Below, in pieces: positions 12,716-60,530 of a DNA stretch of 64,000 nt. Position 1 is the stretch's first letter, and the number at the start of each line of letters is the position of its first letter. This DNA comes from Eledone cirrhosa (Eukaryota). The position numbers were made by a program, and so were the translations under genes. Location of the stretch: NCBI GenBank assembly GCA_964016885.1, contig OZ024741.1, positions 335,668,001 to 335,732,000 on the forward strand. Direction: 5' to 3'. The notes under the pieces are model-generated. The model was not told the origin of the DNA. It made no database searches and saw only the letters and a list, made by a program, of their open reading frames with translations.

Positions 12716-13021
12716 TAGTACACTATTAATAATTATTAATGCACTCGTGCAATGCCTGTGCGTGACGAATATTTTTAAAGTGAGGAAAGACTGTGCACTG
12801 AGCCAATCCCACTCTCTGAGCGACAGTAGCTATAACCCGAAAAGAAGAAAAGATCAACATCATCGGTAACTACTGAGCCGCAGGTTTTATGTCGGAGTTA
12901 ACCAGTTTCCTGAGATGCCTTCTCCTAGAAGAATGCCCTGACAAGGGCTAGGGGTTCTTCACTCGCAGTGGTTTAACTGCGCAATCGGGCATCCAGCCCG
13001 ATTATTTCTATGTCCCCGCGC
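8803..13021 (-). mobile_element. Near full-length RTE-clade LINE
   Basis: 5'UTR with CTAGGAGAAGG motif, then EN-RT-zinc finger coding region. 3' end GGCCATACTCGATAACGAGGGGGCAGCCATC runs into (AT)n. Confidence 0.92.
9100..12649 (-). pseudogene. RTE ORF: APE endonuclease + reverse transcriptase + three C2H2 fingers, with two frameshifts
   Basis: Motifs WNVRTL, SETRL, GDFNARVG, TDHRLV, NYRGISLLS, QSGFR, DLTKAFD, GVKQG, LLYADD, LRWSGH. Frameshifts: 7-bp GTTACCC duplication at 10497-10510 and a 1-nt loss in the homopolymer at 9351-9354. Confidence 0.92.
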
Positions 13022-13298
13022 AAAAAAAAAAAAAAAAAAAAAGTACGTATAAGTGTCAATAAGTGATATATATATATATCACTTATTGACACTTATAGGT
13101 ACTTTTTTTTTTTTTTTTTTTTTGCGCGGGGACATAGAAATAATCGGGCTGGATGCCCGATCGCGCAGTTAAACCACTGCGAGTGAAGAACCCCTAGCCC
13201 TTGTCAGAGAGTTAGAGAGAGAGGGGTAGATGGTGGTGTAAAGAGAGATGGCGGTGTGTATGTATGTATATATATATATGTGTGTGTATGTATATGTG

Positions 13299-14140: not shown

Positions 14141-15046
14141 ATATTGTTATACTTTGGGAGGGTCATGTTGCCAATAAGAAACACACGCACCAGTTGCTTT
14201 CACTTCAATTTATTATATATTTATAAATTTATAAATTTACAAATCTACAAACTTATAAATTTCTGGTTGGTTGGTTCCACAACCAGATAGTTGTTTATAT
14301 ATATAGTCATACCAACATGCTAAGATAGAACACAGGGGTAGATTAGAGAGCATAGAAATAAAAATAGAATCCACGCACAGAAAAGACGCAATGTTTAGGC
14401 AAATTACAGAGGCAGTAAGCATAAAAGAATTAAAACCAAAATTAAATAGAAAATACGAGTGGAACAGCAACATCACAACTTACAATTAAGGACAAAATGA
14501 AAACACACACACACATAGAACAAACAACTTACAATTGAAAACACACACAAAATGAAAACACACACAGGAGAAAATGAAAACACACACACACATAGAACAA
14601 ACAACCAACCAACAATAAATAAATAAATAAATAAACAAATAGAAAAATGAACACAAACACACACAGACACCCGGATGTGGCACATGCGCAAACTGAGCAC
14701 ACAACACACACACAGAAACAAAATGGCGTAGGATAGAAGAAAGAAAAGGCACAGAAACGAAGAGAAGAAAGGAATCCCCAGTCACTGAAGAGGTCACAGA
14801 GTGTGTGACGAAAGGACTATGACTATATATATAAACAACTATCTGGTTGTGGAACCAACCAACCAACCAGAAATTTATAAGTTTGTAGATTTGTAAATTT
14901 ATAAATTTATAAATATATAATAAATTGAAGTGAAAGCAACTGGTGCGTGTGTTTCTTATTGGCAACATGACCCTCCCAAAGTATAACAATATCGGTTTCA
15001 ACACACGATTTCAGATAAAGAATCTTGCTAAACAAATTCAGAAACG

Positions 15047-25089: not shown

Positions 25090-25094
<5 letters not shown>

Positions 25095-25280
25095 AATGAG
25101 TAGGACCCCCACGGCTGAGCTCGAGCCGTGTCGACGGCTAATTCAGAATTAGCCGTCGAAACGGCTTGAGCTCAGCCGTCGGGGTCCTACTCATTCCTAT
25201 TACCCACTCTACTACCCTAAGTATTGAGTACTTTGGTGCATTATGGTCCATCTGGTTCCTTACCAGATTTCCTTCGTTAT
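25090..25280 (+). mobile_element. Fold-back element, family C, with the 3' part of a hammerhead
   Basis: 55-bp arms around A25145. GAA-ACGGCT(loop)AGCCGT-C then GGGGTCC gives stem III plus a GUC site. Tail to 25280; (TA)n on both sides. Confidence 0.8.
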
Positions 25281-35598: not shown

Positions 35599-35801
35599 AG
35601 TAATAATAATAAATTAGAAGACTAAAATCCAAAGAGAGCTCGATAAGGATGAACCGTAGAGGAAATATTTATTAAAATAACAGATTAAAGTTTAAGCAAA
35701 GGATCACTGCTTTCACCCTTAACGGGATCTTCAGAAGATCCCGTTAAGGGTGACAGCAGCGATTCTTTGCTTAAACTTTAATCTATTATTTTAATAAATA
35801 T
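35599..35801 (-). mobile_element. Fold-back element, family D, with hammerhead core
   Basis: 68-bp arms around A35733. Minus strand CTGAAGA-TCCCGTTAAGGGT-GAAA. (TA)n on both sides. Confidence 0.75.
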
Positions 35802-44968: not shown

Positions 44969-45316
44969 CATAATAATAATAGATATAAAATATAATTCGG
45001 AAGCTACTGTAGGAATCCAAATAAGTGAACATCGAATGTTGTGTGGTCTGAGTGACTTACTCAGGGAGACAATAGCCTTGAATGTTCCCACAGAGATTGT
45101 ACAGTGTTTCATAAATAACAGCTATAGATAGGGTTGATAAGAATATATAGGGAAGGTCATGTGATTTCCAACTAAAAAGAAATATATCTCTGAAAAATTA
45201 AAATGTTCTACTCCTCCTTCCACCCAATGTCTTATGTCTTTCTCCTTACCCATTCTATCACTGAGGAACAACAAAAATAAAAACATTTAAAGAAATATAT
45301 ATATATATATATATGT

Positions 45317-45451
45317 ATAATGAAGGAAATGTGGTAAGGAACCAGGTGGACCATAACGCACCAAAGTACTCAATACTTGGGGTAGTAGAGTGGGTAATAG
45401 GAACCAGTAAGACCCCGGGGGTCTTACTGGTTCCTATTACCCACTCTACTA
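45317..45451 (-). mobile_element. Fold-back element, family C, second copy
   Basis: Perfect 34-bp arms at 45383-45416 and 45418-45451. Tail is homologous to the reverse complement of 25181-25280. Confidence 0.8.
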
Positions 45452-45663
45452 TATATATATATATAAAATATTAAAAAAATAATGAATAAAACAATGAAAC
45501 AGTTCCTTATATTAAACAAAAAAAGTTCATTATTTAACGATCGTTTCTAGGATATATATGTGTTAGAATTGGCATGCATATTCAACAGATCTATGTACAA
45601 AATTATACAAAATCAGTTCTTCATACGGATTGGACACTACTGTAAACTCTTGGTAGATTTATC

Positions 45664-60346: not shown

Positions 60347-60530
60347 TTAAAAGTGACAAAGGCGCTGTGTGGTTAGTAATAAATATTGAGAAACACAAAC
60401 ATAAGGACAATTCCCGCTCTTACCTGTCTGCTGTGGGTCGCTGATGTTTCAACACATTATATGTCAAAACATCAGCGACCCACAGCAGACAGCCGAAGAG
60501 CGGGAATTGTCCTTATTTTTTTCTAACCAA
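60343..60530 (-). mobile_element. Fold-back element, family F
   Basis: About 57-bp arms at 60401-60457 and 60460-60516. Minus strand has a stem then GAAACATC next to the turn. (TA)n on both sides. Confidence 0.7.

Follow-up and report, generated by a model that had tools for sequence, protein, structure and literature searches.

Copies arranged head to head, a tail and a hammerhead ribozyme are standard features of Penelope-like elements (PLEs), to go by the accessible parts of several descriptions (PMC8557442; PMC4209133; PMC6765202; 10.64898/2026.07.22.740005). The Hydra clade of these retroelements is defined, in the available portion of PMC8557442, by RWK and DKT motifs, a CxCX5C linker, CxxC and CxH motifs around E and N, and a (TA)n target. 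The function of the PLE hammerhead is called unclear in that same portion, and the accessible text of PMC4209133, in which a U3-A8 core appears as a published variant of the ribozyme, proposes a function without in vivo evidence. For a lizard (Anolis) PLE, two start sites of reverse transcriptase (RT) and priming on both strands have been shown in vitro; the hammerhead cut is absent from RNA reads and is not needed in vitro, according to the sections available of that paper (PMC11167929). Self-priming had earlier been proposed for such palindromes (PMC3846280, in its accessible part). No report of genomic PLE copies ending at the hammerhead cut was found in literature consisting largely of papers outside subscription; the supplements of PMC11167929 (Fig. 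S2) and PMC8557442 may bear on the point.

The copy considered here lies at 45317-45451 of the window, that is, of the whole 64,000-nucleotide stretch of Eledone cirrhosa DNA that was analysed. It is quite probably a minimal head-to-head insertion of a Hydra-clade PLE, made from an RNA whose 5' end came from the predicted hammerhead, by the joining of two cDNAs that had been primed separately. Positions in the element are counted from the first G after the GTC of the predicted cut (+1), with C17 as -1. The long arm (45318-45416, minus strand) runs from +1 to about +99 and includes a tail of about 80 nt; a turn spacer of one base (45417) is followed by the short inverted arm (45418-45451, plus strand), which runs from +1 to +32/34 and has its final TA in common with the target repeat. 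The (TA)n target lies at 45295-45317 on the left and at 45450-45465 on the right. That the copy folds back on itself, as first described, is plain: 45383-45451 is a perfect 34-bp inverted repeat (fold z = -10.8) between (TA)n runs, reading GACCCC-G-GGGGTC about its centre at G45417. That it starts at the cut holds exactly for the short arm, but the long arm starts at +1 or at -1 according to how the spacer is read, the centre base corresponding on the long arm to C17 and being either C17 retained, a slip in the G run or an added base. The outer end of the short arm is also out of the ordinary, the family norm being +17/19. Since a C/G spacer is rare and this outer end atypical, there is more doubt about the origin of the 45317 copy itself than about that of the class of copies ending at +1. 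Both arms end at the cut in 0 of 29 of its nearest relatives, in BLAST-type samples that are too small or too biased to reveal a minor peak.

The long arm matches the sibling copy at 25090 at 92% of positions from 25180/25181 onward. That sibling is also a fold-back, centred on 25145, with both arms reaching -35: its short arm (25091-25144, minus strand) extends from +19 to -35 and its long arm (25146-25279, plus strand) from -35 to +99, with A25145 as the spacer at the turn. The long arm opens with the 3' half of a type I hammerhead (25146-25185, plus strand), from the 3' strand of stem II to the 3' strand of stem I. Within it the ACGGCT/AGCCGT stem III (25161-66/25174-79, with a palindromic loop) and C17 at C25180 are as the original prediction described them, with GAAA at 25158-61 and the 3' strand of stem I at 25181-85, all on the plus strand. 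The position of the cut has stood, but the sibling from which it was drawn has the 3' half only. The 5' half is missing from both window copies and is present in longer copies elsewhere in the genome, which complete the fold.

Other fold-backs lie in the window. The one in (TA)n at 35665-35801 has 68-bp arms and a one-base A spacer; on its minus strand it reads CTGAAGA..GAAA from the turn, which thus lies at the hammerhead-like core of another family. At 60424-60492, between (TA)n runs, a fold-back of a different family has arms of 31 bp or more around a 7-base loop, and a palindrome at 12938-13207 has 135-bp arms, A/T runs and (TA)6 at its centre.

In the longer copies the long arms provide stem I (ACCCC), the core and stem II, and as modelled the whole is a type I hammerhead with a U3-A8 core, whose predicted cut falls at the site first proposed. 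Genome-wide, 1,721 arms extend far enough upstream to hold the whole ribozyme. Among 96 distinct arm sequences the core reads U3UGANA8A in 42 and C3UGANA8A, with a mismatched C3.A8, in 48; none has the canonical C3-G8 core, while GAAA and GUC are present. U4, G5, A6, A8 and A9 are conserved in 89-94 of the 96, and N7 is the most variable inner column. For 14 arms picked for diversity, stems I, II and III are 100, 87 and 92% paired (91% of cells over 20 pairs); covariation in these chosen arms amounts to one pair with a double change, a score reached by 11 of 500 shuffles. The hammerhead is the minimum-energy fold in one subfamily (L256; P about 0.4) and a minor conformer in five of six arms folded (P 0.0002-0.07), with GAAA often hidden by a hairpin; loop III is palindromic. 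The subfamily of L256 (L256:1523-1624, minus strand), in which base changes make the hammerhead the best fold, is the commonest among short copies and rare among long arms. Rfam returned no hammerhead for one full-length arm, nor for the window among the best 150 of 235 matches, which were mostly sub-threshold, microsatellite-driven miRNA hits. Hammerhead motifs also occur in other repeats: at 14779-14825 a minimal type I motif with a canonical CTGAAGA core precedes (TA)n and a repeat common to loci such as L028, and canonical CTGATGA..GAAA motifs stand beside (TA)n in other repeat families flanking three further loci (L004, L010 and L014).

The family is large. An exact-pattern search of the 3.0-Gb genome finds, as a lower bound, 16,065 copies arranged head to head around no more than 130 inner bases, and among the first 100 of these 97 are inserted in (TA)n. 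One locus (L254) shows what the parent looks like: beside an inverted truncated copy with tail stand a partial tandem, an open frame of 774 residues and a terminal repeat, with a unit of 3,533 bp. Partial tandem pLTRs with an adjoining inverted truncated copy and an optional tail are the arrangement that marks an EN+ Penelope-like element. The open frame has, by eye, the RT and GIY-YIG motifs FDI..Y, SMG, YRDDG and VIY..YIG, and its neighbours in the protein atlas carry RVT_1, GIY-YIG and HTH_animal; a Pfam scan of the frame gave 0 matches. It also bears Hydra-clade marks (LRWR, SDKT, CNCPDGSIC, CNLC..EE, NKK..CKH), with RWR in place of RWK. By these protein motifs and the (TA)n target, the parent is a Hydra-clade EN+ Penelope-like retroelement. 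A non-LTR retrozyme was considered and set aside, the copies being dispersed head-to-head pairs with half of the ribozyme missing and the observed tandem unit encoding an ORF. Assembly artefact is ruled out, because the junctions vary from copy to copy.

Where do these copies turn? The peak at the GUC site that the original prediction called for, once tabulated, is sharp to a single base: both arms end at the cut, with 0-4 spacer bases between them, at 286 places genome-wide, as against 5 at a control anchor moved to -5 and 11 at +5 (both with patterns 2-4 letters longer than that for the cut), and reversed-pattern controls give 0. It is nevertheless a minor class, most copies reading through and stopping near -41: among the first 100 of the 16,065 copies the furthest arm end lies between -39 and -45 in 65, and in 3 it is at +1. 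In the short-copy sample (the first 100 rows of 715, which are 99 places), 54 places belong to the +1 class; extrapolation gives ~390 copies, about 2.4% (2-3%) of fold-back copies. Arm ends were read at the 43 insertion junctions from the +1-class copies of this sample, since they are unambiguous there: of 86 ends, 53 are at +1, 3 at -1 to -3, with 0 at -1, and 14 at +2 to +4. The profile is thus a cliff upstream of +1 and a decay downstream. Solo copies, of which 33 were recognised by eye among the 51 places listed, start at +1 in 7 cases, at +2 in 4 and at the TA-homologous +8/+10 in 12; none of the 33 starts clearly at -1 to -5, with a pattern that is mildly biased against upstream starts with insertions. 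Seven direct joins of (TA)n to +1 were also found. The CCCC/GGGG self-complementarity of the turn does not account for the peak, because solo copies show the peak too and because the A/T spacers are untemplated. A few hundred insertions ending exactly at the predicted cut are, on the strength of the sequences, likely to be a DNA record of ribozyme cutting in living cells.

The bases added at the turns point to two kinds of RNA end. Of the one-base spacers at +1, 13 are A/T and 1 is C/G (first 50 of 286 places), whereas those between two arms that end at A-41 are C/G in 22 and A/T in 2 (first 50 of 663); the difference has p = 2.5e-7, and each preference is opposite to the templated base. Decay of CpG is too rare to be the origin of the A/T spacers, since CpG is intact in 154 of 159. 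An untemplated A is the usual addition by RT. Capped full-length L1 insertions bear an extra G (PMC11702581, accessible part), and an internal promoter with an initiator is described for the D. virilis Penelope in the available text of PMC2377424. The spacers lead us to infer that RNAs start with a cap at TT-A(-41)-GTC, which lies inside loop II, and that the ends at +1 lack a cap. No downstream DPE match was seen by eye. We take TTAGTC to resemble an initiator. A splice acceptor at -40 (TTTAG|TCC) was also considered; no upstream-exon sequence was noticed at the junctions, and the C/G base suits a cap better. In four loci (L005, L048, L083 and L172) junctions near -44 carry long runs of A or T, opposite UUU; these, and extra G's at +1, may come from slippage of RT at template ends.

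How the second arm came to be inverted is a separate matter. The original prediction had a cleaved template whose cDNA snaps back; in the form weighed here, a single cDNA does so after a few untemplated bases and primes its own inverted arm, akin to the self-priming of PMC3846280. The cleavage part of that proposal is supported, for a minor class; the snap-back part gives way to twin priming with end joining, and we now regard it as unlikely. If snap-back were primed in the tail, the long arm would have to be the further-reaching one, and for that reason equal reach tells against it: among the first 100 of the 16,065 copies, the short arm extends beyond the long arm in 33 and falls short of it in another 33, and in 34 they end within two bases of each other, with up to 1,126 pattern matches of a shape in which the short arm out-reaches the long. 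A hairpin loop needs at least three bases, and the symmetric +1 junctions have spacers of 0-2 bases in 22 of 34, although the other 12, at three or more, would accommodate one. The outer end of the short arm, moreover, is fixed in 97 of 100 copies, at a site (+19) that also ends direct, ORF-bearing copies and that borders 53 of 54 +1-class copies. On the side of snap-back are the non-standard outer end of the 45317 short arm and the tendency of both arms to stop at +1, as they do at 22 of 43 insertion junctions; for single copies such as 45317, self-priming may still apply. Junctions per 100 copies divide into 46 overlaps, 18 blunt joins and 36 insertions, some of these apparently copied from nearby, which is also seen in end joining; a better fit than snap-back is the end-to-end joining of two cDNAs primed separately.

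Joining leaves the identity of the +1 end to be accounted for. A defined RNA end of other origin, whether an additional transcription start at C|G or the work of a host or element nuclease, is decidedly unlikely: C-1/G+1 is a pyrimidine-purine step, and an extra G is seen by eye at about 7 +1 junctions and perhaps in the 45317 copy, but the added base is A/T in all but one of the 14 one-base spacers at +1, as opposed to the cap-like C/G at -41, and the end coincides to the exact base with the hammerhead site. Such an origin would also suit the continued appearance of +1 copies in the mismatched-core lineage. Here the subfamilies give a mixed account. A tail marker that goes exclusively with non-U3 cores (8 of 8 long arms) shows no depletion among the +1 copies, where 6 of the 14 typed have it, versus 5 of 24; the intact-core subfamily is enriched among symmetric turns (41:8 versus 47:33, p = 0.003), without significant enrichment in the whole +1 class (35:17, p = 0.36). 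Cutting in trans through the palindromic loop III may explain the +1 copies of the mismatched-core lineage. Dispensing with an RNA end altogether, by arrest of RT at the G run or stem III or by later deletion of the palindrome centre through CG/CGG microhomology, is very improbable. An alternative stable hairpin does lie nearby, and microhomology could account for 26 of the first 50 symmetric junctions (18 by CG, 8 by CGG), but the remaining 24 have non-templated spacers; arrest at stem III predicts the -1 ends that are absent from the 86; and the cliff is also there in solo copies, where there is no palindrome.

Hammerhead cleavage followed by the joining of two separately primed cDNAs would proceed as follows. 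Most templates would be transcripts with a cap and a start at A-41, within loop II, and would be unable to cut in cis because the 5' half of the ribozyme is absent from them. Read-through transcripts would carry the whole ribozyme, and some would be cut after GUC and thereby acquire a GGGGUC end without a cap. The endonuclease would nick both (TA)n strands and RT would begin at two RNA sites, +19 and +99. Both cDNAs would run off the same 5' end, each gaining one base without a template, C where it faces a cap and A otherwise, and would then be joined, with or without microhomology. On balance we lean towards reading the mini-insertions as a genome-wide run-off assay, which reports both a capped loop II start that disarms the ribozyme and an uncapped GUC end, and according to which the PLE hammerhead cuts germ-line RNA and the product is retrotransposed. 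Cleavage would then be a side route, to about 2-3% of short copies. The likely promoter start is placed inside the ribozyme, and for the inverted structure twin priming with end joining is supported. A base-exact peak with a distinct end chemistry makes PLE hammerhead function testable from genomes alone, family by family.

The comparisons that follow refer to the accessible parts of the papers cited. With the Hydra clade (PMC8557442) the element shares a single ORF with RT and C-terminal GIY-YIG, the DKT, CxCX5C, CxxC and CxH motifs, the (TA)n target, a hammerhead and an inverted 5'-truncated copy with tail. It differs in the length of its unit (3,533 bp, against under 3 kb) and of its tail (about 80 nt, against 30-40), and its hammerhead combines a U3-A8 core with a complete stem III and a long loop II. 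Like the minimal PLE hammerheads, including the U3-A8 form of Schistosoma (PMC4209133), the predicted ribozyme is of type I with a short stem I, G10.1-C11.1, a U3-A8 core, a bulged stem II and a palindromic loop III; unlike them, it has a stem III of 5-6 bp that could form in the monomer, and its main RNA start seems to fall within loop II. L1 twin priming (PMC11702581) likewise yields inverted arms from two primed ends, with joins by microhomology or insertion and an extra G at capped 5' ends, but here both RNA priming sites are fixed, and the arms overlap and have the same 5' end. In Anolis Poseidon (PMC11167929), as is likely here, two RT start sites bound the tail, both strands are primed and the ribozyme is dispensable for most insertions. 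There, RNA reads that end at the cut were not found, nor was cut RNA found to be used; here, a class of insertions ends at that site.
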